Origin: a virus
Length of the DNA stretch: 45,420 nucleotides
IMG/VR virus record: IMGVR_UViG_3300027865_000001
Direction: 5' to 3' (one strand)
In this document: positions 656 to 17,902 of the stretch, in pieces
How positions within the stretch are numbered: position 1 is the first letter of the stretch
How the letters are laid out: each line of letters starts with the position of its first letter
Position numbers and translations under genes: made by a program
Notes under the pieces: model-generated
The model's input: the letters and a program-made list of their open reading frames with translations, nothing else
Database searches by the model: none
What the model was told of the DNA's origin: nothing

Positions 656-701
656 TTAGATCCCCTATAAGTTATCAGCTGAGACTAAAGTTAGTAGCTT
701 A

Positions 702-1190: not shown

Positions 1191-1227
1191 TTGGGTTACC
1201 TATAAGGTTTATGGGAGGAGAAAATGC

Positions 1228-1300: not shown

Positions 1301-1327
1301 AGCAAGGGTTCTAACTAGCTACTAGTT

Positions 1328-2554: not shown

Positions 2555-2624
2555 AAGTTATTCTCCGCCCGCAGGCATTAGTAATAAAAAGTAATATTAA
2601 AAGGTTAGAAGATAATACTAAGGT

Positions 2625-3041: not shown

Positions 3042-3073
3042 AATAGTATTCCCTAAAAGATTAAGTTAAAAAG

Positions 3074-3835
3074 TTATACCCCAAACCTTGTCCAATCTGT
3101 CTCACCTGGAGCTAGATCAGGAGCTTTAGGAGCGAATGCTTCACCCATAGCTAAGATAAAATCTTGTGTCATTTGGGTGATTTGTTCAGGTGTTGCAGTA
3201 GGATTTTTTGCAAGTAACTGAGCCTTAGTTTGTTCTATTATAGGCTTGACTGCAGGATTATCAAAGATGGGATTAGTGTCAGTAAGATGAGCTGTAGTAG
3301 CTTGATCTCTTAACATCTGGGGAATTTTAGCACGTTCTAATTCTAATGCTTTAGCTACAGCGTTATTGGTAAGCTTATTACCTACTAATGTAGACTGTAT
3401 CATTACTTGCTGTGCTACTACATTCATAGCTTCAGCAAAAGCTTTCTGTGCACCTTCACCTCCTTCACTTATAGCTGTCATCTGTTCAGGAGTTATAGCT
3501 TGTGTGAAGTTAGCATTAGCTACAGCTTTCTGAATGTCTTCTGCTTTAAGCTCTACAGGAACTTCAGGCGTAGGGGCATTTGGGTCTATAGCTACATCAT
3601 CCCATAGAGTCTTAAACTGATCTAGTGGGAGTTCCGGAACAACTGGTTCAGCTACTACTGGTGGTACAACTCCCAGTGGTAGAGTTGGATTATTAGGATC
3701 TGCTATTCCTGCACCCGGTGGTATATTACCCGGCTCTACAGGAGTTCCTGGAGCTGGTGCTACCACTGGTGCTGCTGGAACTGCTGCCGTTGGTTCTACT
3801 GCTGGTGGTGATGTAAATATATCGAACATGCCCAT
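3074..3835 (-). CDS. Scaffolding protein candidate
   Basis: 253 aa with a Pro/Ala/Val-rich N-terminal third and a long helical, charged C-terminal part. It sits between portal and MCP, as in T7-like and P22-like modules. Confidence 0.6.
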   Translation of the reverse strand: MGMFDIFTSPPAVEPTAAVPAAPVVAPAPGTPVEPGNIPPGAGIADPNNPTLPLGVVPPVVAEPVVPELPLDQFKTLWDDVAIDPNAPTPEVPVELKAEDIQKAVANANFTQAITPEQMTAISEGGEGAQKAFAEAMNVVAQQVMIQSTLVGNKLTNNAVAKALELERAKIPQMLRDQATTAHLTDTNPIFDNPAVKPIIEQTKAQLLAKNPTATPEQITQMTQDFILAMGEAFAPKAPDLAPGETDWTRFGV

Positions 3836-3873
3836 GGGAGTTACCTTCTAATGGTTGTGTACTGAGTATAAGC

Positions 3874-4149
3874 CTAAACTGGCTCTGGATTAGCTAATAG
3901 TTCTTCTGAAGCTTCAGATGTTGCTAAGATAAAACGGTAAGCATCTATCTGACCTTTTAAAGATGCTTCTTGCTGACAGAACCTATCATGTTCTGCAGCA
4001 GAGTATTCTAACCCGTTCTTCTCGTGAGCAGCAGCTGCTAAGTAATTCTGTATCACTTGCTTCTGAGTAATAGTTAATAATGAACCTTCCAGCTCTTCTT
4101 GTTCAGTAAGCTGGTAAGAGGAAAAATCGTTAGGTATAAGATGAGCCAT
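3874..4149 (-). CDS. Hypothetical acidic protein
   Basis: 91-aa ORF that starts 16 nt downstream of the portal stop, on the same strand. Confidence 0.6.
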   Translation of the reverse strand: MAHLIPNDFSSYQLTEQEELEGSLLTITQKQVIQNYLAAAAHEKNGLEYSAAEHDRFCQQEASLKGQIDAYRFILATSEASEELLANPEPV

Positions 4150-4165
4150 GATGGTTTCCGTAATC

Positions 4166-6187
4166 CTATGGTGAGGGTGCTAATACTTCTGAGGTGCCTG
4201 CGCTAGATTGTACGTTAGCTTCAGGTGGTCTGGGTGTGTTCTGTGCTGGTACATAACCAAACTGTTCAGGTGAAGGAGCTTCTCCTAATTCTTTTATGTC
4301 TCTATCTTTCTCTAAAGCTAAAGCTACTAAAGAATTATACTGAGCTAATGCTTGTTCATAAGCTACTTGCTCAGAAGATTTCTCAAAATCAGAAATAGCA
4401 GCTCCTTGAGTTTTCATTAAGTAAGAGAACATAGGACCTATATTATAAGATTGTCCTATCTGTGGAGATGTACCTATTACTTGTAATGCAGCAGAAAAGC
4501 TTTCACCATTTATAAGCTTAGAAGCTGGTATCAAACCATCAGAAATTCTAAACTCTAATACAGCTTTTCTAAGAGCTACAGGATCTATAGTTACATCTAC
4601 ATTCTGATCTTTATTATATATAGTAACACCAGCTTGAAACTGTAGTATGTTGATTTTAAGTATCAACTTCATAGGTACAAATACTTGAGCTTCTAGCAAG
4701 ATAGAAACTACCTGATCTCTGCTATTAGCATTATTCATTACAGACTCAAATTCGTGTAGAGTCTTATTACCCTTTACAAACTGTCCTTGAGAAGCTTGGT
4801 TTTGACCAGCTAGATTGTTAGCAAGTCCAAGTAATGCTTGTACATTTTGCATTGAAGCTGCTTGCTGATCTTCTCGGTATGGAAAAGCATATACAGCTTC
4901 TGCTAATGGCTTACCGTAAGCAGCTGGTCGAACAGGAATCTTAGCACTAGGATTAGCACTGTTAATAGCAGCACTAGTAACTCTAGAAGGATCATATAAT
5001 GCTCTATCACTAACAGCTCGTCTCCTAGAAGCCATGATAGAGTTCATATAAGCACTAGTTACGAACTGGAAGGGTTCAGCATCAGTAGCTAATGACTTAG
5101 TCTGGTAAGAAAGACCATCTTCCGCAGGTTGACCTACAAGAATAGGTAAGTAATTATGAGCATTAGTTTGACGCTCTGCATAGATAATATGCTCATGGTT
5201 TACTAACACTATCTTATATATCTGAGGAGTATTAGAATTAGGTACTCTAAGATTAAACTCAGACGGAAGCACACGACAGTATAAAGTAGTAACTTCATAA
5301 GCATCTTTGTATTCTATATCCTTTCTATAATCTGAGAATCCTGCCCACTTCATCCAGTTAATTGCTCCACGCTTATTATCTGTTTCTTGTACTACTGGAT
5401 TAATACTTGGGATATAGAAGTTCATAGCTCCTGCATTCTGAGCACCAGTAGCAGCACCTAGTCCGGATTCAAAAGCAGGTACTATATTTCCAACTATCTT
5501 ATCAGTAAGCTGTGAAATGAAAGTTTTAAGTTCTATACGAGACATAAATTCAGTAAAGCCTGCATATTCACCTCTCTTATAGACTTCAGAAGCTGGTACT
5601 TTTTTATCTATAAAAGTATTATAAGGATCAAGACGTCGTATACGATTTCCATTCCAAATTACTTCCTTAGGTACACCTTCAGATAAGTTCTTCTGTACAT
5701 CAGTTTCTACAGCAAATGTTACTTCCTGCGACCAATCTACTTCTATTGGAGCAAAGTTATACTTAAAGCCATCACGAAAGAACATAGCTAGCTCTCTTAC
5801 CCAACCACCTCTTATAGATTGATCTTCTAGTATTGTTTCCATCTGTATTGCTTGATCTATCCACTGTGGAGCAGATACTACTCCAAAGATAGGATGACCA
5901 GTAAGAAATACAGATGCTTGGTAGTCAGTAGCAGTCTCTACTTGAGTCTTAATTACAGGTATAGTAATATTCTGAATTCTATCAGAGTCTCCTCTAGCAT
6001 TAGCTTCCCGAGCATCTTGTTGTTCTTTAGTTCTATCTAGCTCTCGCATATACATACGATCAATCTTCTCTAAGCGAGAACGAGACTCATTTCGTGTTAT
6101 ATTTTCTTGCAACTGTAAGGAACGGTAATACTCTCTAAATGCATCCTGAGACTTCTTACCAAGTGCTACTGAAACGGAGGCTGCCAT
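4166..6187 (-). CDS. Portal protein
   Basis: 673-aa ORF that starts 17 nt after the terL stop. Its size and position immediately downstream of the large terminase are typical of a portal. Confidence 0.75.
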   Translation of the reverse strand: MAASVSVALGKKSQDAFREYYRSLQLQENITRNESRSRLEKIDRMYMRELDRTKEQQDAREANARGDSDRIQNITIPVIKTQVETATDYQASVFLTGHPIFGVVSAPQWIDQAIQMETILEDQSIRGGWVRELAMFFRDGFKYNFAPIEVDWSQEVTFAVETDVQKNLSEGVPKEVIWNGNRIRRLDPYNTFIDKKVPASEVYKRGEYAGFTEFMSRIELKTFISQLTDKIVGNIVPAFESGLGAATGAQNAGAMNFYIPSINPVVQETDNKRGAINWMKWAGFSDYRKDIEYKDAYEVTTLYCRVLPSEFNLRVPNSNTPQIYKIVLVNHEHIIYAERQTNAHNYLPILVGQPAEDGLSYQTKSLATDAEPFQFVTSAYMNSIMASRRRAVSDRALYDPSRVTSAAINSANPSAKIPVRPAAYGKPLAEAVYAFPYREDQQAASMQNVQALLGLANNLAGQNQASQGQFVKGNKTLHEFESVMNNANSRDQVVSILLEAQVFVPMKLILKINILQFQAGVTIYNKDQNVDVTIDPVALRKAVLEFRISDGLIPASKLINGESFSAALQVIGTSPQIGQSYNIGPMFSYLMKTQGAAISDFEKSSEQVAYEQALAQYNSLVALALEKDRDIKELGEAPSPEQFGYVPAQNTPRPPEANVQSSAGTSEVLAPSP

Positions 6188-6204
6188 CGTATTATTCCTA
6201 GATT

Positions 6205-7764
6205 CTAGAATGGGTTATTATAATCAGGTACTTCTATTGCTTCAAATTCTTGTGATTCTACTATGTTACCAGCTATTACATATTCTCCAAACTCATTTAC
6301 TACGCGCGGCGCATATGTAAGTAAATCAAGTATACCATCTACATTATCTGTTTTTAGTGGATTAAATCCAGTAATCTGTAAATGTACACTTAATTTACAT
6401 TCATCATGTACAAAAAACTCACCTGCTGCATAAGCTTTAAACATAGTAAGTATACGAGCATTTTTATTCTTAATACCTGAGTATATAGGTACTGCTTCTA
6501 TGCCTGCTATACCTAGTTGTCTACAAATAAACTCAAACCAATAGAGTAAAGAATATTGGTAAGCGTTAGATTCTACAGCTATGAGACGACAGTTATGAGT
6601 AAGAGCTAGTCTAAGAGCTTCGTGAATTGTATCCCCTGGAGAGAATCTACCCTCACGTAATTCCATTAACATAGGTAAAGCATCATGTATCTCAAAATAA
6701 CCTACAGATACAGCATCTGAACCTATCTTGTCTGTAGCTGGATCTATTACTATAAAGTTACCGCCAGATATATCACCTTCGCTATAAGGAGAATCTGGTA
6801 GCTTAGATAGATCAATTAAGTTATTAGCACTAGCATTCTCATCATTAAGAACTTCTGCATAGAATATCTCAGGCTTACCCATAGCCAGATCATTTTCAAA
6901 TTCCTTAATAAGCTGTGTTGCTGGCTGGAGTTCTTCCCAAAGAGATGTACCATCTACAAGTAAACCACCAGCTATAAACTTAATCCAAGTAGCATTCTTC
7001 TTAAATTTACGTAAGATACTATGCTTAGTAGGATACATATTAGCTACAAATAAGAACATACAACCAGTAGGAGATTTAGCTTTCATCGCTGTTCCTACTA
7101 TCCAATTCTCAAGAGAAGTAGTTTGTACTAAGCTATCAGCACATTCTCTAGATTGTACATCTTCAAAGAGCATAACATCTGGACGAGTATTCTTAATATT
7201 AAGTCCTCGTAAGCTACCTTCTGCTCCTACTGCCGCTAATGTTATATTACGTCCTCTAAATCCAAACTTCTTAATTTTCTGTGTGTCTTTCTCTACACCA
7301 AGTTTCCAGTCTCCAAAGACAGCTTTAATATTTGGCTCTTCTAACATATCTATCACATCTGCTAAAATAGCTTCCGCGAGAGGTGCAATAGCAGATATTA
7401 TTAGTATAAACTTCTTATTAGTGAAGAGTATACAATAGATTATAAAAATCTTCATTAAGGTAGTCTTACCAAAACCACGAGGTAAGCCTAATGCAAGTTG
7501 TGGAAATACTCTACTCTGCTTTACATAGCCTAACATCCAAGTCCAGACTGATTTAAATACTGGTGGGAAACAGAACGTAAAGATGGTAGGCATAATTAAA
7601 GCTGCTAAGAAATCTAGATCAGACTTAGCTAGTTTTTGTATTTCCTGCGCAGAAGCTCCCACCTGCTGTATCTCGTTGACCTCAGGTAGAGTAGTATCTT
7701 CTGCATTCTGGAAACCAATACTTGTAGGTTCGGTACCTCCTAATGATTCTAGTGTAGTAGTCAT
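6205..7764 (-). CDS. terL: Terminase large subunit
   Basis: 519 aa. It has a Walker A-like GLPRGFGKTT, a Walker B-like PDVMLFEDV, and a C-terminal nuclease-like acidic strand FIVIDPATDK. It is followed by the portal gene. Confidence 0.88.
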   Translation of the reverse strand: MTTTLESLGGTEPTSIGFQNAEDTTLPEVNEIQQVGASAQEIQKLAKSDLDFLAALIMPTIFTFCFPPVFKSVWTWMLGYVKQSRVFPQLALGLPRGFGKTTLMKIFIIYCILFTNKKFILIISAIAPLAEAILADVIDMLEEPNIKAVFGDWKLGVEKDTQKIKKFGFRGRNITLAAVGAEGSLRGLNIKNTRPDVMLFEDVQSRECADSLVQTTSLENWIVGTAMKAKSPTGCMFLFVANMYPTKHSILRKFKKNATWIKFIAGGLLVDGTSLWEELQPATQLIKEFENDLAMGKPEIFYAEVLNDENASANNLIDLSKLPDSPYSEGDISGGNFIVIDPATDKIGSDAVSVGYFEIHDALPMLMELREGRFSPGDTIHEALRLALTHNCRLIAVESNAYQYSLLYWFEFICRQLGIAGIEAVPIYSGIKNKNARILTMFKAYAAGEFFVHDECKLSVHLQITGFNPLKTDNVDGILDLLTYAPRVVNEFGEYVIAGNIVESQEFEAIEVPDYNNPF

Positions 7765-7940
7765 AATATACGAGGTGCAGAATTAACTCTAGCTGCAAGT
7801 CTCTCTAGCACCTTAGAAGCAGATACTATTTCTTGCTGGCTATATATTACTTTAGTAGTAATAGTCGTTTTACTTTGTAGGCGAGCTAATACTTGTTCCA
7901 AAGTAAGATCCTCTCCTCTAACATGGTATTTTCTACACAT
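7761..7940 (-). CDS. Small hypothetical protein (59 aa), translationally coupled to terL
   Basis: Hand-translated, below the ORF-track cutoff: MCRKYHVRGEDLTLEQVLARLQSKTTITTKVIYSQQEIVSASKVLERLAARVNSAPRIL. A GAGGA Shine-Dalgarno lies 7 nt upstream. Its TGA overlaps the terL ATG (ATGA). Confidence 0.6.
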   Translation of the reverse strand: MCRKYHVRGEDLTLEQVLARLQSKTTITTKVIYSQQEIVSASKVLERLAARVNSAPRIL

Positions 7941-7963
7941 GATATTCCTCGCTTTCTCTTATA

Positions 7964-8638
7964 CTACAACGCCTCTATTCGAGTATCCTCCTCAGTAAGT
8001 GGCGCTTCTAAAAGAGAAAGTGCTTTTTGTCGTACTAAGCTAGCATCCTCTACATTCTTTAGTAAAGTAGATGCTGGCAATGTGTGGAGTTCTTGTTCCC
8101 CTGCACGGGTTACTTGGTTATCTATATTAACTGTAAATTTTTCTGCAATAATTGTGGGTAATATTAAGTTTACAATATTCTGTTGGTTTACTACTTGATC
8201 TGGACTAGACTGACCACGACGCTTAGCACTATTAATAGTACTAATAGCCCTTAACAGATCAGCAGGTTTTAGTATAAATCCAAGACTTTGTTCTAGTTTA
8301 GCTAATAACTTATCTTCTATGGTATCATAAGAAGCATCTCTGTTATTATGTTTCTGGAGATTCTCATAGCGGAGAGTACTTACAGCATCAGAGAATGTTT
8401 GCTCAGATAGTAACTGACTAATTCTAGCAGGAGTTACACCTAATGCATTAGCTACTGCTTCTCCTCCAATACCAGCACCTAGTAATACTAATGCACGATC
8501 TTCGATACTAGTAGTTGTGCCGCGCGCAAGTTTACCATTTACGGCAGATACTTCTGTAGGAGCAGCAGAAACTGGTATCTTCTTACCATCTTGGAAACCC
8601 AAGTCTGCAAGTGTTATATTATTCATATCATGCAACAT
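7964..8638 (-). CDS. Terminase small subunit candidate (HTH DNA-binding protein)
   Basis: 224 aa, located upstream of terL. It has a helix-turn-helix-like segment GEAVANALGVTPARISQLLS. The repeat array at 8859-9010 lies just upstream. Confidence 0.55.
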   Translation of the reverse strand: MLHDMNNITLADLGFQDGKKIPVSAAPTEVSAVNGKLARGTTTSIEDRALVLLGAGIGGEAVANALGVTPARISQLLSEQTFSDAVSTLRYENLQKHNNRDASYDTIEDKLLAKLEQSLGFILKPADLLRAISTINSAKRRGQSSPDQVVNQQNIVNLILPTIIAEKFTVNIDNQVTRAGEQELHTLPASTLLKNVEDASLVRQKALSLLEAPLTEEDTRIEAL

Positions 8639-8858
8639 GTTTCCTCCTTCTGGTAAGAACTGATCGCGGCTATCTTGATATACTACTATAACAGTTAGCT
8701 ATAGGATGCATAGGTAGTAATCGTAAATAGACTTCTTAGATAGCAATATGTATAAAAAGTTTAGGAAAAATAGGGATGTTCCTTAGGATAGCGCGTCTCG
8801 GATAGTCTAAAAAAGCTTCCTACCCCACCCTTCTGGATAGATTGTGTCGTGTGTGGTG

Positions 8859-9010
8859 TAATAAAACTACTGAATGGTACGCAGTACTCATTAGGAATAA
8901 GACTACTTAAGGGTAGCTTGCTACTCATTAGGCTTGTAATAAGACTACTTAAGGATAGCTTGCTATTCATTGATGCTTTTAATAAGATTACTTAATAGTC
9001 AGCTTGCTGA
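8859..9010. repeat. Four phased direct repeats (about 36-43 bp period); candidate pac / TerS-binding or late-regulator sites
   Basis: The core aataaGActacttaaGGnTAGCTTGCTa starts at about 8860 (degenerate copy), 8896, 8938 and 8981. Copies 2 and 3 are nearly identical. The array is intergenic, between the 247-aa gene and the TerS candidate. Confidence 0.8.
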
Positions 9011-9116
9011 CACCTTAACCGAGCGAAGCGAGAAAATTTAGATAGTCCTACGTTACTAGTCCAGTAAGTAGCAGCGAGCTAAGTCCTATTACCTAGCCCG
9101 CGCTACTTGTTACTTG

Positions 9117-9860
9117 CTACAGTTCCAAGTCTCCCAAGCTTGCCAGTGCTTCGGTTTCTTTCTTTTCCATCTTAGCGAAACGACTGGTAAACCTGATACC
9201 CATCGGTGAAGTATCAGCGTCGGTAAGCTTCAAACACTTAGCTAGTGCTACTCGTTGCGCTACTGGGAGCATCGTTTTGCCAGATGCCAGACTAATGAAC
9301 TGTGCAAGGTAAGACTCAATCACCTGCTTGACCTTAGCGCCTTGTTCCTCGGTAAGTTCTGCCGGATCATCAGTTCCCAGTTTGTTAGCCAGTATGACCA
9401 GTAACTTAGATGCGCAAGCTTCGGTAAACCACTCCGTGATCTGCTCACCGTTGATACTGCTGTGCGACTCTTCGATAGTTTCGAGTATCTTCGCCAATGT
9501 TAGCGTCTCCGTGAATACCTGAGTGCCACCATCCTTATGATAGGCGCGGATAGTAGAGTCTTCAACGCTAGACAAGTAAGCGCTAACAAACGGAGCCAGC
9601 GTTTCTATGTTCTCAATCACCTGAGCGATAGATACGTGGTCATTAGGTACAGTGACATAGACGTTAGGTTTTGCTTCCGTACCTTTCGCTTTCATAGCTG
9701 CGGTCTGCTTGTAGTTACAAGTAACTTGCCTGTAACCAGTCGGCGCTGCTGGTGTTCCTTCTACGCTGTTATAAGGAAAGAATTGGCCAGCGGTTTCTGC
9801 TCCCTTGTCAGTAGGCCGGGGTGTTGCTGCTGGTACGTTGTTATCAGTTGATGTGGTCAT
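9117..9860 (-). CDS. Hypothetical protein (247 aa), possible distant paralog of the 278-aa protein at 16141..16977
   Basis: The ORF sits in a locally GC-richer stretch (about 45-47% on two hand-counted lines). By-eye similarity: VTCNYKQT..KPNVYVTVP versus IQFNFKKN..RNSVQIPIP, plus similar helical C-terminal halves. Confidence 0.7.
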   Translation of the reverse strand: MTTSTDNNVPAATPRPTDKGAETAGQFFPYNSVEGTPAAPTGYRQVTCNYKQTAAMKAKGTEAKPNVYVTVPNDHVSIAQVIENIETLAPFVSAYLSSVEDSTIRAYHKDGGTQVFTETLTLAKILETIEESHSSINGEQITEWFTEACASKLLVILANKLGTDDPAELTEEQGAKVKQVIESYLAQFISLASGKTMLPVAQRVALAKCLKLTDADTSPMGIRFTSRFAKMEKKETEALASLGDLEL

Positions 9861-9888
9861 GATAATTTACTCTCTTTTGTTGGTGGTT

Positions 9889-10278
9889 CTAGTGAATGCC
9901 ATTATTGGCGGTTTGTACTGCTTGGTACTTTTCAGGCTGGTAGTCACAATCCATTGATTCAATGATTCCATTCGGTCTGGCTATTGCTACTGTCCAACAC
10001 TGTACTTCTACACCTCTAAGTCTCCATCCATTAAGGTGCGGTTGATGTTCTGATTCAAGGTAGATGTACGTTTGCTTAGCTTGCTTCTGCCAATCAGTAA
10101 TAATGAATCGTCCGAGATTCAAAGCTTGCAAGATATAAACGATGTCATTCAGTTTTGGTCGCATGGTCTGGGTCCCTGTGCTTGATTCGGCATTGTTGCC
10201 GGGTATGTATGAATAATGGACTCTTCTATATAGGGATGCAAGCTTTTTAGCTTTTATAATCCCTGTAAAATCAAACAC
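9889..10278 (-). CDS. Hypothetical protein, first gene of the leftward arm (GTG start at 10278; the ATG at 10164 with an AGGGA SD is a more conventional start)
   Basis: The 129-aa track ORF begins with GTG and has no SD. The internal start MRPKLNDIVY... (9889..10164, 91 aa) has AGGGA 8 nt upstream. Confidence 0.6.
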   Translation of the reverse strand: MFDFTGIIKAKKLASLYRRVHYSYIPGNNAESSTGTQTMRPKLNDIVYILQALNLGRFIITDWQKQAKQTYIYLESEHQPHLNGWRLRGVEVQCWTVAIARPNGIIESMDCDYQPEKYQAVQTANNGIH

Positions 10279-10296
10279 TTACAACTCATTTACTTT

Positions 10297-10412
10297 TAGC
10301 TAAGAGCGTAACCGTTTATATATACTTCACTCGTAAGCGCAGTTATGGTACTGGTAGCTAAGCATAGTACGCATTAGTATAACTTCAATCGTATGCACAG
10401 TTACTAGATTAA
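10297..10412. repeat. Two tandem 58-bp units in the divergent control region
   Basis: Both units begin with tagctaag (10297 and 10355). They share acttcaNtcgtaNgcNcagtta at 10324-10346 and 10382-10404, about 19/22 identical. Confidence 0.7.
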
Positions 10413-10443
10413 GGATTAGGTAAATTGTCAATATGGTCAGCTT

Positions 10444-10464
10444 TGACAAAATGACATTTTGACA
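10444..10464. promoter_or_regulatory. TGACA x3 array at 8-bp phasing (left operator-like array)
   Basis: TGACA occurs at 10444, 10452 and 10460. Read on the minus strand this is TGTCAnnnTGTCAnnnTGTCA, pointing toward the leftward genes. Confidence 0.6.
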
Positions 10465-10473
10465 CTAGCCTGA

Positions 10474-10559
10474 GGTATCGGTATCTAGGGGTATGTTCCT
10501 ATCTCTTGCTGTATCTAATAGGTATGTATAGTAGTAGTATCTAAGTATAGGTATGTACT
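10474..10559. repeat. GTAT(C/G)-rich iteron-like cluster (origin or regulator-binding candidate)
   Basis: At least 7 copies of GGTATC/GGTATG/GTATCTA occur within 86 bp. The 11-mer ataggtatgta occurs twice (10518 and 10547), and gtatcta occurs at 10481, 10511 and 10537. Confidence 0.55.
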
Positions 10560-10680
10560 TATGAATTAGTAATGTTTAAATACACTCCTCTATACAGAGG
10601 CGAATCAGGTACTGTTAGATAGCTAGATATATACCTGTTACCTATAACATAGCCACGGATACGTACCCCTAAATAGGGGC

Positions 10681-10709
10681 TTGACACATCGTTGTCATTC
10701 TGTCAAAAT
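10681..10709 (+). promoter_or_regulatory. Sigma70-like early rightward promoter candidate
   Basis: TTGACA (10681-10686), a 17-nt spacer, then CAAAAT (10704-10709) preceded by TGT (extended -10-like). It lies about 90 nt upstream of the first + strand ORF. Confidence 0.4.
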
Positions 10710-10713
10710 GTCA
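10693..10713. promoter_or_regulatory. TGTCA x3 array at 8-bp phasing (right operator-like array), mirror image of 10444..10464
   Basis: TGTCA occurs at 10693, 10701 and 10709, overlapping the spacer and -10 of the candidate promoter. It is the reverse complement of the left array. Confidence 0.6.
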
Positions 10714-10798
10714 AATAGGGCCACTTTGCCAAAATTCCGATTTACTTCTTAGGTAAGGACTGGTCATACACTGTAAGTTAATAAAGGGAATAGATAAG

Positions 10799-10990
10799 AT
10801 GAGTAATAAAGATAAAGTAGTAGAGGGAGCTATGAAAGTATTACCCGTAGATACTAGCAAGTATAGCTCACGGACTTATTACAGGACAGGACAACCATAT
10901 ACTGGCTTAGGTCAGTGGTTGTTATATCAAGAACGTAAACTAAAAGGAAAAAGTTATGAAAGATACAATAGGTTTAATACATCCTGCTAG
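10799..10990 (+). CDS. Hypothetical early protein (63 aa)
   Basis: First ORF of the rightward arm, with AAGGGA upstream. It overlaps the next ORF by 35 nt, so the true extent is uncertain. Confidence 0.45.
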   Translation: MSNKDKVVEGAMKVLPVDTSKYSSRTYYRTGQPYTGLGQWLLYQERKLKGKSYERYNRFNTSC

Positions 10991-11189
10991 TTGCTGGCAT
11001 AGTGACAGTGCTGAGTTACGAGGTATGGAAATAGAAGTGGTAAATATTACCGACAGTTTATATATAAATGGTGTCAGAGTTAAAGGTTGGTACAATGCTT
11101 CAGTTAGAATTGTTAATCCACCAGCTAGTTGGAAGTGTGTTGCTGATCGCTTACATCTGAATGGCTTCCGTCCTCGGAGGGTAGCATGA
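10956..11189 (+). CDS. Small early protein, paralog A of the MKxxIGLI...GFRPRR family
   Basis: 77 aa with an AAGGAAA SD. The N-terminus MKDTIGLIHPAS and the C-terminus NGFRPRRVA match the 73-aa ORF at 15572. The 13-mer atggcttccgtcc is shared at 11161 and 15762. Confidence 0.8.
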   Translation: MKDTIGLIHPASCWHSDSAELRGMEIEVVNITDSLYINGVRVKGWYNASVRIVNPPASWKCVADRLHLNGFRPRRVA

Positions 11190-11398
11190 ACTGGACTAGC
11201 AACGTTAACAAACGTAAGAAGTGGGACCGTAGCGTTAGACGTATTGATCGCATTACTCGTACGCCTAATATTGATACTATCAAACGTAACCGTAAGCGTT
11301 GGAAGCTTATTTATAAACGAGCAGTGGATGTTCTCTACTGGGTTGCTATCATAGGTATCGGACTTGGTGCTATAGCTGTAGTAACTACCACAGGCTAA
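11186..11398 (+). CDS. Small tail-anchored membrane protein (basic N-terminus, C-terminal TM)
   Basis: 70 aa with an ATGA overlap to the upstream gene. It has a Lys/Arg-rich N-terminus and a C-terminal hydrophobic stretch VLYWVAIIGIGLGAIAVVTT. Confidence 0.7.
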   Translation: MNWTSNVNKRKKWDRSVRRIDRITRTPNIDTIKRNRKRWKLIYKRAVDVLYWVAIIGIGLGAIAVVTTTG

Positions 11399-11421
11399 GA
11401 GTCTTTATCAGACCCATAGTT

Positions 11422-11649
11422 ATGCTAATACAGATAGCTATGGTTCTTATTAAAGGTTTGTTAGATAAGAAAAGGAAGCTAGTAATGAAAGATAGATTAA
11501 CTGGTATTAAGATACGTAGTGCTGAACAAAGGCTAATACAATGCTTTGCTTTAGCTGAAAGCACTTCTAACCCTAAGCTACAAAAAGAGTGGCTTGATAA
11601 AGCTGTTGAACAGGAAGAAATTATTAAACAACTAAAAGGAAAGGAATAA
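11422..11649 (+). CDS. Hypothetical early protein (75 aa; alternative start at 11485 with an AAGGAAG SD)
   Basis: Track ORF. The internal Met22 is preceded by a better SD. Confidence 0.55.
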   Translation: MLIQIAMVLIKGLLDKKRKLVMKDRLTGIKIRSAEQRLIQCFALAESTSNPKLQKEWLDKAVEQEEIIKQLKGKE

Positions 11650-11653
11650 GATT

Positions 11654-12346
11654 ATGGGTACACAATCATGGACACCTAAGCATAAGCTAGGTATTGCTAT
11701 GCATCATATGTTACAAGCAGGTAAGAACCCTTGCTTTCGCATAGAAGGCTTACGTATTAGTGCTGCTAGTGATGTCAGTACTAATCCCGGATACCTTTAT
11801 ATTAAGGATGATAACTGGTCTTACATAGGTAAGATCTCACCAGCAGGATTGCTTAAGGTAAGGCACCCTAGCTTGATTACAGCTAAGCAGAAGCAACTAG
11901 TAATAGAAGCTATTAGTGAACCTGAGCGTATAGCTATGAACGATGGTAAGATTACTGGCACTTGCTGCTGCTGCGGTAGAACTCTTACTAATGCACTTAG
12001 TATAGAACTAGGTATCGGTCCGATATGCAGAGGTTTCTGGTTCCCTGATAGTGATAGCATGACTACTAGCCCTGAACAAGTACTTGTTAATCAAGAGAGG
12101 TTACTGGAAGAACTAGGTGCTAGTGGGCATGTAAAGGCAGCATCAGGTAGCTTTGCTATAGATGAAGATGGTAATGCTATCATACCAGAGCCTACTGAGT
12201 GCTTAGGTGAAATGCCTACTACTACAGTATTCTCTAAAGAGCCTGTACTTGAGATGTTTAGAGAGTTTAAGCTTCTTAATGATACTCAACAAGGCATACT
12301 TTACCATATGCTATCTACGGAGATGAAAGATAATGGCAACCTCTAA
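11654..12346 (+). CDS. DUF6011-like zinc-motif protein
   Basis: 230 aa containing TGTCCCCGRTLTNALSIELGIGPICRGF. This matches the CxxCGR-x-LT...S...GIGP-x-C signature I recall for phage DUF6011 domains. Confidence 0.6.
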   Translation: MGTQSWTPKHKLGIAMHHMLQAGKNPCFRIEGLRISAASDVSTNPGYLYIKDDNWSYIGKISPAGLLKVRHPSLITAKQKQLVIEAISEPERIAMNDGKITGTCCCCGRTLTNALSIELGIGPICRGFWFPDSDSMTTSPEQVLVNQERLLEELGASGHVKAASGSFAIDEDGNAIIPEPTECLGEMPTTTVFSKEPVLEMFREFKLLNDTQQGILYHMLSTEMKDNGNL

Positions 12347-12821
12347 ACACCGCTATCGTCCTGCTTTCTCTAAGGAAGAAGTAGAAGCACTAGATAGGAT
12401 ACTCAAGGTAGCTTACATAGATGACTTAGTGAAGCCACCTTACCATCCTGACAATCCACTTGATACTGCTAGATCATTCCCACCTACTGTAGAGGTAACA
12501 TTCCTTCAGCTTATGGGTAAGATAAGTACTCTCGTATCTAAAATAGCTAATGATGCTATAGTTCCTGCTTATACTATAATTAAGCATAGTGATCCTAAGA
12601 TAGCTATAATGGAGACTCTTGGAGCACATACAGATGAGATAGCTAAGCTTGATGGTACTGAAACTAAAGAACAGTATTGGGAAAGGTGTTACTTGAAGTA
12701 TCTAAAAGAGCCTATGTCTTGTACAGTACCTGAGATAGAAGCATTTCAAGAGTATAGATACTTACATGATCTTATGGCTGCTGATGAAGCTAGAGAATTT
12801 GAAGCTAAGGCAGGAGTCTAA
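12333..12821 (+). CDS. Hypothetical early protein (162 aa)
   Basis: Track ORF that overlaps the upstream gene by 14 nt and the downstream gene by 1 nt (TAATG). Confidence 0.7.
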   Translation: MATSKHRYRPAFSKEEVEALDRILKVAYIDDLVKPPYHPDNPLDTARSFPPTVEVTFLQLMGKISTLVSKIANDAIVPAYTIIKHSDPKIAIMETLGAHTDEIAKLDGTETKEQYWERCYLKYLKEPMSCTVPEIEAFQEYRYLHDLMAADEAREFEAKAGV

Positions 12822-13852
12822 TGGCTAATGTAACATGCGCCATTAGTGGCTTACGTTTTAAGATAGCAGGACTAGAAGGTACTGAGATACCAGCTAGTAT
12901 TGGCTACTATCATCCTATATTTACTCTCTCGCATAAGAAACTGTATACACTATATTATCAGCATACAAGAAACAAACTAACTCAGGTAGATAGCTACCTC
13001 TTGTTCTGTGCTTTCTTACAAGCTACAGGTCAAGTAGAATGGAATTCACCCGCCACCTGTAATCCTAGTGAAACTCATACTACTAAGTTAGTGCAGAACA
13101 ATTTAGCACAGCTTATTAGTGTCTATCAGAAAACATCTATAATTCAACATCCTTCTTTTAGACAACCCAGTTTCGTAGTAAACTATGATAATGGGCGTCT
13201 CGATCAGGTACATAACTGGATTGCAGCATGGCAACAGAACTTAGTAGATTTTAATGTCTCAAGAGCTACCTATGCACAGCAGCGGAGCTTACTTAAGATA
13301 GAAGCTTTACTAGATGAGAAGCTAGCTATAGGAATACCTGCTGAACAGTTACCGGGTATAGTAGCTAGCTGGGCTTCACAAGCAGCGGAGTTTCCTTATG
13401 AAAAGAACGAAGTTTACCAGCAGGTAATACGCTCTTGCTTTAACTCTGCTAAGATGTTTAAGACTCCACTAAATCTAATACGAGAAGTACAGCAGTATTG
13501 CTATGCTAATATAGAGCCAGAGTCTATACACTTCTTTACTTTAGCTGAAACTCTTAAGAAAGGAGTTGCATTACATCTAGATTACTTAGGTGGTTCCAAT
13601 TTAGCGTTAGGGTATACTATGCTAGATATAGATTCACTTAAGCTTACAACAGATCAGAAAGAAGGTGAGCTTAAGACTGCGGCAGCATTGACTAGCATAG
13701 TAAACAATGCGCCAACAGAACCACCGGTATTAATAGATTATCCTGATAAGCTGTCTTTCCTTAAAGCTAAGCTTGCTTACAAGGTAGCTGTTACACTTAC
13801 TACACCAGATACTAAACCTCCAATAAAAAATAATCCAGAGGATGCGCTATAA
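12821..13852 (+). CDS. Hypothetical protein (343 aa)
   Basis: Track ORF with TAATG coupling at both ends. No motif was recognised. Confidence 0.75.
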   Translation: MANVTCAISGLRFKIAGLEGTEIPASIGYYHPIFTLSHKKLYTLYYQHTRNKLTQVDSYLLFCAFLQATGQVEWNSPATCNPSETHTTKLVQNNLAQLISVYQKTSIIQHPSFRQPSFVVNYDNGRLDQVHNWIAAWQQNLVDFNVSRATYAQQRSLLKIEALLDEKLAIGIPAEQLPGIVASWASQAAEFPYEKNEVYQQVIRSCFNSAKMFKTPLNLIREVQQYCYANIEPESIHFFTLAETLKKGVALHLDYLGGSNLALGYTMLDIDSLKLTTDQKEGELKTAAALTSIVNNAPTEPPVLIDYPDKLSFLKAKLAYKVAVTLTTPDTKPPIKNNPEDAL

Positions 13853-15561
13853 TGACTAAGCATAAAATAGACTTTGCTGCCTTACTAGCTAAGGTAAAAG
13901 AGAACGCAGAAGCACCTCCCTCAGACACTACAACATTAGATGCTGTTGCTGAAGTATTGTCTACTAATGATACCATAACAGGTATGCACGGGGAGCTTAT
14001 CACCTATAACTCTAAGCAACAAGAGTTCATAGACTTAGCAGCAGCAGGTAAGTCATGTGTACTTATAGGTGCAGCAGGTACAGGTAAAACTACTTGCAGT
14101 CAAGGTGCGCTTAAAGCTATCCTAGCATCTACTGACTTAGCTATACCTCCGCTAATGTCTGATGGTCATAAGCACCTACGAGATAATACGCCCGGTGTAG
14201 TTATATGTTCTTACACTCGCCGCGCTGTTAATAACATTCGTAAGGTACAGACTGAGGATCTTAAGAATAACTGTATTACAGTGCATAAGCTACTAGAGTA
14301 TGCTCCTGTATACTATGAAGTATTAGATCCTGAGACTAATGAACTTAAGAATACCATGCGCTTTGAACCTTCCCGTAATGCACATAGGCCATTGCCTAGT
14401 TCTATCCATACTATCGTGATAGAAGAAGCATCTATGCTAGGTGGTTTACCTAAAGAGATGGGCGAAGGTAGAGGTGAGTTGTATAACCAACTACTAGCTG
14501 CTCTTGATCATGAGGTACAGTTCATATTCATAGGTGACATACAGCAGTTACCGCCAGTGTTTGGACCTGCTATCTTAGGCTTTAAGCTTAATGAATTACC
14601 TACTATAGAGCTTACGCAAGTGTACAGACAAGCTTTAGAATCACCTATCATTAAGCTAGCTCACCAGATACTTAGTGGTGTACCTATACCTTTAGAAGAA
14701 TACAAGGACTGGCATGTACCGGGTAAATTAACTATTCACCCGTGGAAAAAGAAACTACACCCAGACCACGCTATAATGACGTTAGCTGCATTCTTTAAGA
14801 AAAGTATAGATACCAAACTCTATAATCCTAATGAGGATATGATTCTTATACCTTACAATAAAGCTTGCGGTACATTAGAACTTAATCGCCACATAGCTAA
14901 CCACCTTGCAAGAAAGCGAGATGCTGTTACGCATGAAGTTATAGCTGGTTTTGTTAAAGTATACCTATCTGAAGGTGATAGGGTACTATATGATCGCGAA
15001 GATGCAGAAGTTGTAAGTATCGAGCTTAACCCCTCTTATACAGGTGCTAAGTACCAGTCATGTAGCATGAACCTAGACTACTGGGGACATAATCCTAAAG
15101 CAGTAGAAGAACGCGATGGACATAGAGCAAGCTATCATGAAGACGATGTAGACTTCTTATTAGAGCAAGTAGCTAGCTCAGATGATCGCGTTAACCAATC
15201 CTCGCATAAGATAGTAGTACGCTTACTAGATAGCGAGACTGAAGTAACATTATCAAGCAGTGCTGAAATTAATAGCTTACTACATGCTTATGCTCTTACA
15301 GTACATAAGTCACAGGGTAGTGAATGGCGTAAGGTGTTCTTAGGCTTTCACCAAAGTCATGCTGTAATGATGCAGCGAGAACTACTGTATACAGCAGTAA
15401 CCAGAGCAAGAGAAGAACTTTATGTAATCTGTGAGCCTGAGACCTTTACTAAAGGTATCATATCACAACGTATTAAAGGCGATACCTTAGCAGAGAAAGC
15501 AGAGTACTTTAAAGGTAAGTTACCTAAAGAAGTATTAAACCCAACACCAACTGAGTCATAG
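13852..15561 (+). CDS. SF1B DNA helicase (RecD/Dda-like)
   Basis: 569 aa. It has Walker A GAAGTGKTT, Walker B IVIEEASML, FIGDIQQLPPV, TVHKSQGSEW and LYTAVTRAREEL, which are the classical RecD-family motifs. Confidence 0.88.
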   Translation: MTKHKIDFAALLAKVKENAEAPPSDTTTLDAVAEVLSTNDTITGMHGELITYNSKQQEFIDLAAAGKSCVLIGAAGTGKTTCSQGALKAILASTDLAIPPLMSDGHKHLRDNTPGVVICSYTRRAVNNIRKVQTEDLKNNCITVHKLLEYAPVYYEVLDPETNELKNTMRFEPSRNAHRPLPSSIHTIVIEEASMLGGLPKEMGEGRGELYNQLLAALDHEVQFIFIGDIQQLPPVFGPAILGFKLNELPTIELTQVYRQALESPIIKLAHQILSGVPIPLEEYKDWHVPGKLTIHPWKKKLHPDHAIMTLAAFFKKSIDTKLYNPNEDMILIPYNKACGTLELNRHIANHLARKRDAVTHEVIAGFVKVYLSEGDRVLYDREDAEVVSIELNPSYTGAKYQSCSMNLDYWGHNPKAVEERDGHRASYHEDDVDFLLEQVASSDDRVNQSSHKIVVRLLDSETEVTLSSSAEINSLLHAYALTVHKSQGSEWRKVFLGFHQSHAVMMQRELLYTAVTRAREELYVICEPETFTKGIISQRIKGDTLAEKAEYFKGKLPKEVLNPTPTES

Positions 15562-15571
15562 GAGTAGTAAA

Positions 15572-15793
15572 ATGAAAAATGTAATTGGTTTAATTGGTCC
15601 AATGTCAGCTAGACACCATAGAAGTAAAGTACTTCGCAACAATCCAGATATAATTATAACTGAAATATGTAAATTATATAATGGATCAGATTGGTATTGT
15701 GGAAGGTTTACTCCACGTAAAAACATTGATGTATTTAAAGCTGGTAAATCTTATCCTATCTATGGCTTCCGTCCACGTCGTATAGCAGGGTAA
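15572..15793 (+). CDS. Small early protein, paralog B of the MKxxIGLI...GFRPRR family
   Basis: 73 aa. MKNVIGLIGPMS...YGFRPRRIAG aligns with the 77-aa ORF at 10956. AGGAG lies upstream. Confidence 0.8.
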   Translation: MKNVIGLIGPMSARHHRSKVLRNNPDIIITEICKLYNGSDWYCGRFTPRKNIDVFKAGKSYPIYGFRPRRIAG

Positions 15794-15796
15794 GTT

Positions 15797-15967
15797 ATGA
15801 TAGCGCCGACATGGTTCTTAGCTATAGTAATCATACTGACACTAGGTTTTATGGTATTAAATATATTATCTAGCCTAGTGTCAGCAGATACTCTTAAGTT
15901 TCTATTCGAAGAGGTATTATTCCCTGCCGTTATTCTCGGCATATTGGCTATACTCGTATCAATGTAA
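15797..15967 (+). CDS. Small two-TM membrane protein (56 aa)
   Basis: Hand-translated, below the track cutoff: MIAPTWFLAIVIILTLGFMVLNILSSLVSADTLKFLFEEVLFPAVILGILAILVSM. It starts 3 nt after the paralog B stop. Confidence 0.6.
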   Translation: MIAPTWFLAIVIILTLGFMVLNILSSLVSADTLKFLFEEVLFPAVILGILAILVSM

Positions 15968-15977
15968 GTCTAATAGC

Positions 15978-16000
15978 TATAGCTCGATGGCGTAGCTATA
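15978..16000 (+). promoter_or_regulatory. Conserved 14-mer atagctcgatggcg (copy 1) inside a 7-bp inverted repeat
   Basis: The 14-mer at 15979-15992 recurs at 17390-17403. Here it is flanked by tatagct/agctata arms. It lies upstream of the 278-aa gene. Confidence 0.5.
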
Positions 16001-16034
16001 AGCCATGCTATCTTGGATATGAGCAAATTCCCTA

Positions 16035-16063
16035 TTGACGGATTCTCGTATCCATGAGATCAT
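16035..16063 (+). promoter_or_regulatory. Sigma70-like promoter candidate for the 278-aa gene
   Basis: TTGACG (16035-16040), a 17-nt spacer, then GATCAT (16058-16063). It lies about 78 nt upstream of the ATG at 16141. Confidence 0.35.
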
Positions 16064-16140
16064 GGTTGTTCTGTTGAGAGACAACTCTCTTTTACCTTTT
16101 ACCCACTAACTAATTTACACACAAACAGGAAACAATTCTC

Positions 16141-16977
16141 ATGGACAACTTAGATCAACTTAAAGCAGGACAAGATGCAGGACAAGAAACGCCTGTAGAA
16201 GATAGCACCCAAGAAGCTGTAACACAAGAAGATGAGCTTACAGCAGCAGACATTACTACTACTGAAGTAATTGTAGAAGCAGGCAAGGAAGATATAACGC
16301 GGCATACGATTGCTGCACCTAACCCTTCTAAGGAAGAGATGGCAGAGTTGCTTAAAAACATCCAAGTTAACTACGACTCTAAAGTAGACGTTAAGCCGAT
16401 ACAGTTTAACTTTAAGAAGAACACTGACAAAGAGACTGGTATTGAAACTGTCCGTAACTCAGTACAGATTCCTATCCCTTTCCCATCAGTCGAAGGCGTA
16501 GTAGGTATCTTAGAAGCAGGTGGCTTGCAGATGGAACTGCTGTTTGAAGCTATCTATAAGATTGTTACTGACGCAGCAAGAGAGTACTTGTATGAAGATG
16601 TTACATTTACTGCTGCTACCTTCCCGATAGATCTAGTAACTTGGGATGCTATTAGCAAGCAACCTAAAGCACAGCGTCGTGGTGGTGGTATTGCTAAAGA
16701 AGTTTGGGAAGGCTTCGCTCAGGACTATGTTAACGTCATGCCATCTGTTACTGGTAAGACTGTTGAACAGATTGCTAATGCTGCTAAGATCCTTCTTGGT
16801 AAGCTGGCACAGGTTAAGACCAATGAACCTGTACTGAACCTTTTGGTAGGTCAGTTAGCTATCTACGCGGATAACTCTGAGAACATACAAGAGTATCAAG
16901 AGTGTGTTGAGTTCTTGCTTACCAAAGCAAACACATTCCTTAACGTTACAGATGAGCAGCTTCTGGCTAACCTGTAA
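16141..16977 (+). CDS. Hypothetical acidic-N-terminus protein (278 aa) in an apparently monocistronic unit
   Basis: Track ORF with an AGGAAA SD and a very acidic first 60 residues. It is followed by a strong intrinsic terminator. Possible paralog of the 247-aa ORF at 9117. Confidence 0.8.
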   Translation: MDNLDQLKAGQDAGQETPVEDSTQEAVTQEDELTAADITTTEVIVEAGKEDITRHTIAAPNPSKEEMAELLKNIQVNYDSKVDVKPIQFNFKKNTDKETGIETVRNSVQIPIPFPSVEGVVGILEAGGLQMELLFEAIYKIVTDAAREYLYEDVTFTAATFPIDLVTWDAISKQPKAQRRGGGIAKEVWEGFAQDYVNVMPSVTGKTVEQIANAAKILLGKLAQVKTNEPVLNLLVGQLAIYADNSENIQEYQECVEFLLTKANTFLNVTDEQLLANL

Positions 16978-17029
16978 TCTAAAAGATAGTTACGGTCCAT
17001 AGTTTTCCAGCTATCCGTAACAAGTATCT

Positions 17030-17076
17030 CCCGCTAGCAGGTTTAATTTCCTTTTCTTGCTAGCGGGTTTTTTTTT
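17030..17076 (+). terminator. Rho-independent terminator
   Basis: Perfect 10-bp stem cccgctagca (17030-17039) / tgctagcggg (17058-17067), followed by T9 (17068-17076). Confidence 0.85.
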
Positions 17077-17217
17077 ACCATAGACTATTTTGAAGGTGGC
17101 GGGTATTTATATCTCTCACCCCAATCTAGAACTAAGCTACGCAACAGTACTAAGCTGTGTCTTGAGGCTCTCTGTAAAGTGATCAACGTATTTTGCAAGC
17201 CTGATAGAATATCAAGA

Positions 17218-17363
17218 GCGTAGGCCATCTTCAAAGTAGTTTACTATTCCGAAGTAACTAATGAGGTAACTCCCATGAGGTAACCGTAATCATCTTATGA
17301 TGAAACTATATTTCTAAACCTCTAGAGAGGCAGCCCAGAATAAGTATCGCTGCCTCTCTTTTT
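17218..17363 (+). ncRNA. Candidate small RNA between two terminators (speculative)
   Basis: An extended -10-like TGATAGAAT sits at 17202-17210. There is no ORF longer than 6 codons with a start. The segment contains the direct repeat atgaggtaac twice (17261 and 17275) and ends at the terminator 17324-17363. Confidence 0.25.
17324..17363 (+). terminator. Rho-independent terminator
   Basis: Perfect 11-bp stem agagaggcagc (17324-17334) / gctgcctctct (17349-17359), followed by TTTT. Confidence 0.8.
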
Positions 17364-17383
17364 ATATATACTATTTAGCGTTA

Positions 17384-17413
17384 CTATCCATAGCTCGATG
17401 GCGCAATAGATAG
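17384..17413 (+). promoter_or_regulatory. Conserved 14-mer atagctcgatggcg (copy 2), upstream of the AT-rich TATATAAAA
   Basis: The 14-mer lies at 17390-17403, flanked by ctatc/gatag. The same acacacaa..aggaa RBS context seen upstream of 16141 follows it. Confidence 0.5.
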
Positions 17414-17444
17414 CATATATAAAAACACACAAGGAATACTTATC

Positions 17445-17618
17445 ATGGCAGTAGCCACAAGTAGACACGATATTATTATCACTCTAGTTTTAGATGAAGC
17501 TGAGGCTAGACTTATAAGAGACCTCACATTCGTCTGTATAGACGCTGAATCTTTAGAAAATCAGATGGTTAGGCAGAGCATCTATACAGCTTTAAACAAG
17601 CAACTACCTAGCGAGTAA
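17445..17618 (+). CDS. Small hypothetical protein (57 aa) ending at a TAA that is in frame with a start-less downstream ORF
   Basis: Hand-translated: MAVATSRHDIIITLVLDEAEARLIRDLTFVCIDAESLENQMVRQSIYTALNKQLPSE. An AAGGA SD lies 9 nt upstream. Confidence 0.6.
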   Translation: MAVATSRHDIIITLVLDEAEARLIRDLTFVCIDAESLENQMVRQSIYTALNKQLPSE

Positions 17619-17885
17619 AGTATTAGAAAGTATGAGCCAATCTGGTTAGCTCTAAAAACTAAGAACACCGCCTCTTGCGCCGCACCTATTGAGCAGCATA
17701 GAAAGATAGTACTAGGCGTAAGGAAGGAAAAGACTAAGGATATAGGCTGGAAATTAGAATGCCTAGAGCAAAGTACCCGCTTTAAATTATATGATGAATC
17801 AGATAACACCTTACTTACGTTTACTCTTAGGAAAGCCGAGTTACTATCGTACGCTACACTAACAGCCCGTGATTTAGGTGGATAA
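17619..17885 (+). CDS. Start-less 88-codon ORF continuing the 17445 frame (readthrough extension, non-AUG start, or nonsense-split gene)
   Basis: Codon-by-codon reading finds no ATG, GTG, TTG or CTG in 88 sense codons. The translation is SIRKYEPIWLALKTKNTASCAAPIEQHRKIVLGVRKEKTKDIGWKLECLEQSTRFKLYDESDNTLLTFTLRKAELLSYATLTARDLGG, followed by TAA at 17883-17885. An open frame this long is unlikely by chance in AT-rich DNA. Confidence 0.45.
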   Translation, partial: SIRKYEPIWLALKTKNTASCAAPIEQHRKIVLGVRKEKTKDIGWKLECLEQSTRFKLYDESDNTLLTFTLRKAELLSYATLTARDLGG

Positions 17886-17902
17886 ACTAAAGGAATCTAG
17901 TT

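Follow-up and report, generated by a model that had tools for sequence, protein, structure and literature searches.

Layout of the window and its intergenic module

The viral DNA analysed here (IMG/VR record IMGVR_UViG_3300027865_000001; the whole stretch of 45,420 nucleotides is referred to as the window) carries its genes in two opposed blocks, and the region between them, at 10279–10798, holds two mirrored arrays of short boxes on either side of an AT-rich centre. This element, hereafter the module, is the subject of the present analysis. The first and last 127 bases of the window are identical (1–127 = 45294–45420), and because an exact overlap of this kind typifies circular k-mer assemblies, the window is taken to be a complete circular assembly of about 45.3 kb with an arbitrary start. 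The structural block (27063–45420 plus 1–10278, − strand) includes the genes for the major head protein, the portal and TerL (6205–7764). The replication block (10799–26838, + strand) encodes a Dda-like helicase, a PD-(D/E)XK nuclease, a Sak4-like ATPase, a family A polymerase, a DUF3987 primase and a DHH phosphoesterase. None of the window proteins scanned was recognised as a phage RNA polymerase. No similarity to known phages was found at the DNA level. The window TerL is 31–36% identical to those of Aeromonas P5, EBPR podovirus 3, Pseudomonas PaMx41, 119X and PaP2, and Polaromonas Tiera, and the phage is a podovirus, distant kin of Pseudomonas LUZ24/PaMx41 and Polaromonas Tiera.

An earlier note on this DNA, made from the letters alone, had described 10279–10798 as free of open reading frames (ORFs) and as holding four repeat systems. 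The interval contains no ORF of 50 or more amino acids, and all four systems were found where that note had placed them, above chance. The near-invariant core, the palindrome, the boxes TGTCA at 10426 and TGCCA at 10727, and an inverted TGACA within the −35 element are additions to it. The features of the module are the following.

10425–10464, + strand: left arm; outer box TGTCA (10426–10430), then TGACA three times at 8 bp (10444, 10452, 10460)
10475–10555, + strand: GTAT(C/G)/GGTAT cluster; seven words including both copies of ATAGGTATGTA, in the left half of the centre
10482–10581, no strand: least-stable window; rank 2 of 45193 100-bp windows for low duplex stability
10557–10622, no strand: near-invariant core, ACTTATGAATTAGTAATGTTTAAATACACTCC...AGGCGAATCAGGTACTGTTAGATAG; an AT-rich tract followed by ACAC(T/A)CC, about 65 bp
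10666–10679, no strand: palindrome CCCCTAAATAGGGG, directly upstream of the −35
10681–10709, + strand: predicted early promoter; −35 TTGACA (10681–10686), 17-nt spacer, extended −10 TGT-CAAAAT (10701–10709; CAAAAT at 10704–10709)
10693–10731, + strand: right arm; TGTCA three times at 8 bp (10693, 10701, 10709), then outer box TGCCA (10727–10731)

The phasing of both triplets is exact. When TGACAnnnTGACAnnnTGACA was searched across the genome with up to 2 mismatches, its matches were confined to the two array sites, on opposite strands (chance expectation 0.11), and none of 100 shuffles gave two matches. No other 8-bp-phased pentamer triple occurs elsewhere in the 45 kb. The 3 + 3 boxes at 8 bp are separated by the spacers aaa, ttt and ttc, AT-rich as in tandem-array operators. 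In the repeat analysis the right arm appeared as direct repeat D1 and in inverted repeats I3 and I5; its mirror-image array sits 250 bp to the left.

The arrays are conserved while their boxes change jointly

Relatives were collected by a TerL-based scan of viral contigs, which returned 79 loci at 54–90% identity, and nine further loci came from homologues of two proteins encoded near the module, gp247 and gp162. Many of the 89 loci do not cover the interval. An exact test for a pair of 8-bp-phased word copies together with a pair of reverse-complement copies, within 120–650 bp, was passed by 19 of these 89 (the window and 18 relatives), compared with 1 of 445 block-shuffled loci, and relatives that span the interval show the module by eye. 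Mirrored arrays thus lie on both sides of the centre in relatives, which bears out the conservation that the earlier note had named as a check. The module is a conserved, dyad-symmetric non-coding element of an uncultivated podovirus family with genomes of about 43–46 kb.

The box sequence differs between clades. Exact TGACA/TGTCA arrays are restricted to the clade of the window (loci L001, L081 and L084–L088). In L014, L016, L019, L035, L036, L070, L077, L079 and others, TGCCA is repeated three to four times on the left and TGGCA three times on the right; L031 has CGACA/TGTCG, and three CGACA boxes stand in the left arm of L089, the only arm read there; L058 has TGCCT/AGGCA; L065 has RRCCA/TGGYT; and L059 and L063 have C(C/T)AGAC/GTCTAG. 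For every type the boxes of the two arms are reverse complements of each other. Inner phasing of 8 bp and AT-rich 3-nt spacers are kept throughout, each arm carries extra boxes outwards at 10-bp phasing, and the centre between the arms, 200–420 bp in relatives, is rich in TA steps. Since the box sequence changes jointly in both arms, in mirror image, we argue for a single orientation-sensitive reader. We lean towards the view that the arrays form an operator pair, bound by one protein that shuts the early promoter and bracketing a candidate origin.

Arrays of another kind occur further along in two relatives: the early region downstream of the module contains long 9-bp tandem arrays (TACAAnnAT-like) in L019 (163–310) and L050 (5095–5460).

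The centre resembles an origin and could hold genome ends

The earlier note had reported at least seven GTAT(C/G) motifs and suggested an iteron-based origin. Seven such words lie on the + strand at 10475–10555, an 81-bp span for which about 0.25 are expected (from 267 genome sites on both strands), and ATAGGTATGTA occurs at 10518–10528 and 10547–10557. The most enriched pentamers of the window's centre are GGTAT, CCTAT and GTATC, and in every relative inspected the centre is filled with words of this family. GGTAT, GTATC and TATCTA words occupy the left half and mainly their complements the right half; inverted 6-mers are shared between the halves beyond shuffles in 12 of 16 modules (P ≤ 0.01). 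Nowhere in the genome are TA steps denser than in the 200 bp that begin at 10476 (41 steps; genome mean 22, standard deviation 4.3). The core is the best conserved block of alignment A5, which comprises six TGACA-clade modules; its AT-rich tract with ACACACCC recurs in TGGCA-clade centres, and it can be recognised in other clades.

The first genes behind the promoter are the following.

10799–13852, + strand: first genes as a group; small ORFan genes, the DUF6011 protein, gp162 and gp343
11654–12346, + strand: DUF6011 protein, early gene
12333–12821, + strand: gp162, early gene, ahead of the Dda-like helicase in relatives
12821–13852, + strand: gp343, early gene, ahead of the Dda-like helicase in relatives

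Conserved directly downstream of the module are gp162, gp343 (neither with a recognisable fold or family) and the Dda-like helicase, an order that was read directly, family by family, in L081 and L088. As in iteron-type origins, the centre has oriented words that are kept in relatives and an adjacent, easily unwound AT-rich element. Together with the conserved gp162 and gp343 and the downstream helicase, these features fit an origin, and the centre is plausibly the best candidate for the replication origin of this phage.

The same features fit a concatemer junction too; the terminal repeat of LUZ24 has the same relative position and the same words. Here the centre would contain genome ends, a terminal repeat or a pac site, the arrays would act in recognising the ends or in packaging, as at the pac site of P1, and an inward-facing promoter would stand next to each end, as in LUZ24. 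In LUZ24 a 184-bp terminal repeat lies between annotated divergent sigma-70 promoters, its neighbours being TerS and, on the opposite side, the early genes, and the top pentamers of the 843-bp stretch include GGTAT, CCTAT and TATAG, as in the window's centre. In close relatives, contigs frequently stop within the module or next to it, and the helix-turn-helix of the putative TerS is invariant, as is the GGTAT word family. However, LUZ24, Tiera and Aeromonas P5 have no 8-bp arrays; contig ends are scattered and cluster at least equally in the gap upstream of gp224, the putative TerS gene; gp247 stands between TerS and the module in most relatives; the boxes diversify and the TerS recognition helix does not; and the circular assembly of the window has only its 127-bp k-mer overlap, with no ends visible. 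We regard a junction as unlikely, though a serious rival to an origin, and prefer an operator pair around a candidate origin.

The gap upstream of gp224 (8639–9116) is a second ORF-free interval, with a 42-bp tandem repeat of 3.5 copies at 8855–8995. Many relatives' contigs end 240–600 bp upstream of gp224, where other tandem arrays are found. This gap may be a pac site or terminus, or merely contain repeats that break assemblies. The nick consensus of LUZ24, TACTRTGMC, was also searched and discarded, having a single site (chance level).

The right arm overlaps a predicted early promoter

The TTGACA-17-CAAAAT candidate of the earlier note proved to be the best sigma-70-like site in 8400–11200, matching 10 of 12 positions and preceded at the −10 by TG; transcription would start near 10716. 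A main host sigma-70-type early promoter within the module, facing the replication block, is well supported by these sequence features. The right-hand TGTCA boxes themselves make up its spacer and −10. Position and register are kept in 12 relatives (L001, L014, L016, L019, L035, L070, L077, L079, L081, L086, L087 and L088), always facing the downstream genes and with a 16- or 17-nt spacer and CAnnnT after TGn: the −35 (TTGACA or TTGACC) stands 5–6 nt ahead of box 1, box 2 gives the TGn and the CA of the −10, and the following spacer and the T of box 3 finish CAnnnT. A C-run or G-run beside TTGACA is likewise kept in relatives. In L029 and L034 box 2 has turned into TGGTATAAT, a perfect extended −10; this shows that promoter function is under selection at that position. 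L059 and L063 have a separate promoter (TTGACA-17-TA(C/T)CCT), with the GTCTAG array just downstream. An array on the spacer and −10, or just downstream in the GTCTAG clade, has a repressor-type rather than an activator-type placement.

Promoter architecture might account for the boxes by itself, as tandem overlapping extended −10 elements with −35-like outer boxes, used by host RNA polymerase with no dedicated factor. The unit matches TGn plus CAnnnT, with the key A−11 and T−7 present, and in TGnCAnnnT the T−7 of one unit doubles as the T−15 of the next; the geometry of box, 5 nt, box, 3 nt and TGn yields a 16-nt spacer. In a scan that required both a −35 and a TG, promoter-like sites were found rightward in 14 right arms and inward in eight left and seven right arms, the inward sites arising because the outer box stands 16–18 nt from the inner box. 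T is enriched four nucleotides past isolated boxes (35/74), and the drift of box 2 to TGGTATAAT points the same way. On the other side, the GTCTAGnn arrays of L059 and L063 have no −10 character, downstream as they are of a separate TTGACA-17-TAnCCT promoter, so that the 8-bp period cannot result from overlapping −10 elements alone and would belong to the reader. C is retained at −12, where promoters in general prefer T. At the centre base of the box, which falls on the n that TGn leaves unspecified, most modules nevertheless have a single base throughout their 8-bp arrays, with its complement in the opposite arm, and the left arm retains its boxes without an outward −35. We therefore hold an account by promoter elements alone to be rather improbable, a little more so than a junction, and keep to an operator pair read by one protein.

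The left arm and its leftward neighbours

The features on the left side are the following.

9117–9860, − strand: gp247; borders the module in the window's clade, inverted in most relatives
9889–10278, − strand: gp129; ORFan, leftward
10297–10412, − strand: 58-bp units; cores GCGCTTACGAGTGAAG (10325–10340) and GTGCATACGATTGAAG (10383–10398), in the would-be leader of the leftward genes

The left arm mirrors the right one, including the C/G run, and an A/T run stands where the right arm has its −35. Read rightwards, it presents a promoter-like TTGTCA-16-CAAAAT with TG; read leftwards, it has no −35, and the scan described above detected no outward (leftward) promoter in any left arm. A leftward gene beside the left array is found only in the window's clade (gp247, with gp129 in addition in the window only). 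In the larger TGGCA clade the gp247 homologue occupies the opposite strand, its transcription running towards the left array, and in L035 it is followed by a terminator-like hairpin. More broadly, gp247 is on the TerL strand in homologues of at least 48% identity (the window's clade) and on the opposite strand at 27–37% (distant relatives such as L008, L014, L029 and L031), so the gene must have been inverted beside the module during the history of the family. The earlier note had proposed one factor controlling two divergent early operons. Of this, the single factor stands, in that the arrays are conserved and mirrored and switch boxes jointly; the two operons hold for one clade only, and the conservation of the module with or without a divergent junction weakens them as a general account.

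The neighbouring gp129 has a GTG start, no clear ribosome-binding site and a weak coding score (0.027 per codon), and no homologue was found in any relative. Either it was inserted recently or it is no gene at all, and in the latter case the non-coding stretch would measure about 940 bp.

The two tandem 58-bp units that the earlier note had placed at 10297–10412 are real but degenerate, with 34 of 58 positions identical, a level reached by 1 of 6412 sampled genome positions; Tandem Repeats Finder did not report them. Both GCATACGA elements, 58 bp apart, are kept in L001, L081, L084, L086 and L087 (alignment A2; TGACA clade). As a repeated phage promoter GCATACGA was rejected, since it does not recur elsewhere in the genome above chance.

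The mirrored arms also bear on two minor alternatives. An invertible promoter switch, in which the arrays are recombination sites and a flip of the centre moves the −35 from the right to the left arm, would fit inverted arms around a 200–420 bp segment, a −35 just inside the right arm with an A/T run at the same place in the left, and assemblies that break at the module, but it is most improbable given that no serine or tyrosine recombinase was present among the proteins scanned and that TTGACA is on the early-gene side in 14/14 modules with a scored rightward right-arm promoter. A structured non-coding RNA made from the centre by the left-arm promoter-like site, as the inward sites of eight left arms and the conserved core might suggest, has equally little in its favour: Rfam gave nothing for the region at E ≤ 1, no tRNA was found, and RNAalifold predicted a weak fold (−18 kcal/mol across 346 columns; the covariation term was positive, hence a penalty) whose long helices were the inverted arms only. 

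A further variable position lies within the structural block. A Tad2-like gene (PF11195, anti-Thoeris) stands between TerL and the portal gene in L082 (3641–3859), L083 (3849–4115) and L085 (4222–4485); the window has no room for one, because its TerL abuts the portal gene.

Candidate readers and the proposed operator pair

Arrays of this type call to mind ribbon-helix-helix proteins, for which no Pfam match was obtained even at E ≤ 5. The N-terminus of gp162 (model pLDDT 87.7) resembles a strand-helix-helix, and its strand residues vary between clades. Other proteins were considered and set aside. For gp247 the AlphaFold model had a pLDDT of 78.7, with no Foldseek hit below E 0.1 and no PDB sequence match. 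The TerS-like gp224 is an unlikely box reader, because its helix-turn-helix ALGVTPARISQLL hardly varies from one box type to another. Two known site types were excluded by sequence reasoning: a sigma-54 reading of the TGGCA boxes, where the GG-to-GC distance is 10 in the 10-bp arrays and 11 is required, and a PhoB box reading of TGTCA, where the phasing is 8 bp and not 11 and most relatives use TGGCA. The DUF6011 protein, which is conserved beside gp162 in the window's clade, has a cysteine-rich motif at residues 97–127 and could be a zinc-ribbon DNA binder.

In the operator pair that we favour, both arrays would be sites of one sequence-specific, orientation-sensitive protein, most likely phage-encoded, which would load side by side every 8 bp and, on the outer boxes, every 10 bp. 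On the right arm the protein would occlude or block the early promoter, so that early transcription would be shut off or autoregulated. Bound to both arms, it would bracket the centre, which would probably be looped or clamped. The left arm would, in this clade only, additionally stand upstream of the leftward genes gp129 and gp247.

Several points weigh against this proposal. The boxes resemble promoter elements (TGnCAnnnT an extended −10, xTGNCA a −35), and part of the pattern could therefore be due to nothing more than host RNA polymerase. The outer boxes of the TGACA clade remain TGCCA/TGGCA, so the centre base is not uniformly read. No box-reading protein was found, the early proteins having no matches in Pfam, PHROGs, NCBIfam or PDB sequences. 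As a ribbon-helix-helix protein gp162 was rejected: it gave no Foldseek hit and no PDB profile match, and hhalign assigned a probability of 0.24% against ten classic ribbon-helix-helix cores. GC skew, which the earlier note had suggested as a check for the origin, follows gene orientation, and being confounded in this way it discriminates nothing and was dropped as an origin marker. Finally, the physical genome ends could lie within the centre.

A bolder version, which we advance only tentatively, is that a novel tandem binder, by sequence and predicted fold outside the ribbon-helix-helix class, sits every 8 bp, clamps the origin on both sides and gates early transcription together with replication initiation, with specificities for at least six box types; the gp162 or gp343 families are possible candidates. 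Were this so, box types would play a part comparable to that of immunity or incompatibility groups, here among strictly lytic phages co-infecting the same hosts.

The module is in any case a precise, conserved cis-element (boxes, phasing, promoter register and core) of a widespread uncultivated podovirus family. Because almost all early proteins are ORFans, it offers a direct handle on the regulator or initiator by DNA pull-down. By switching boxes jointly in both arms, the clades provide a natural experiment on how a protein and its DNA sites co-evolve. If the centre is an origin, the module would show a lytic phage coupling shut-off of a host-type early promoter to replication; if it holds the genome ends, it would show the arrangement of ends and entry promoters in these phages.

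Comparison with known systems

No description of such a module was found in the literature searched. In how it works, its nearest match appears to be the tandem-array operators of ribbon-helix-helix proteins, although it cannot be assigned to that family, since the searches returned no protein of this kind. The earlier note had called 8-bp phasing unusual for classical dimeric repressors, which does not hold: ParG of plasmid TP228 binds arrays of this kind, consisting of ACTC boxes that stand in direct and inverted order with 4 bp of AT-rich DNA between them, each box occupied by one dimer (PMC3130281). The ParG sites OF and parH share with the window short boxes, AT-rich spacers, 8-bp phasing and an array that overlaps a promoter for repression (PMC3130281). 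The window differs in having a 5-bp box with a 3-bp spacer, two mirrored arms (200–420 bp apart across the family), no ParA/ParF partner and no detected ribbon-helix-helix protein.

The metboxes of E. coli MetJ are likewise 8-bp units, and the heptads of the omega protein of pSM19035 are 7-bp units; two to five tandem units are bound cooperatively. As in the window, these arrays overlap promoters, and their units may be direct or inverted. The metboxes, however, are palindromic 8-mers that follow one another without a gap, and neither the MetJ nor the omega arrays bracket an AT-rich centre.

Among phages, LUZ24 (Bruynoghevirus) is similar in gene order (TerS side, non-coding stretch, early genes), in the host sigma-70 promoters that diverge from that stretch, and in its enrichment for GGTAT, CCTAT and TATAG words; its use of host sigma-70 promoters has been described (PMC10914365). 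Unlike the window, it has no phased box arrays, and its stretch holds the terminal repeat. The two TerL proteins are about 33% identical; gp224 has no similarity to LUZ24 TerS, and no homology was found between gp247 and LUZ24 gp2. In LUZ24 (locus L080) the sequence GGGGAATATC stands at 45432–45441, directly ahead of the repeat's right-end copy, and again at 175–184, as the final 10 bases of the repeat itself, which suggests a terminase cut signal. Tiera (L091) has the same gene order, with a 780-bp ORF-free gap (43391–44172) at the equivalent place that contains an 81-bp direct repeat and no 8-bp arrays; its published description gives no genome ends (PMC9959647).

The module also shares features with replication origins and with a packaging site, and it departs from each in a defined way. 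Mirror-oriented box arrays, an AT-rich unwinding element and an adjacent promoter with replication genes link it to known origins. Initiator boxes form oppositely oriented arrays in E. coli oriC (DnaA boxes) and in SV40 (GAGGC pentamers), and the origins of T7 and T4 are built from a promoter plus an unwinding element. Box spacing is 11 bp in oriC and 6 bp in SV40, compared with 8 bp in the window; the window has its easily melted DNA between the arrays, and its strong promoter would fire away from the melted DNA. In P1 pac, two clusters of four and three TGATCA/G boxes surround a central cleavage region. Short-box clusters thus flank a central region in both cases; the P1 boxes are Dam sites within pacA, whereas the window's module is intergenic and lies about 1.8 kb from the putative TerS gene. 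Set against these systems, the module would combine elements of known kinds: a probable tandem-array operator, a promoter and a candidate origin.

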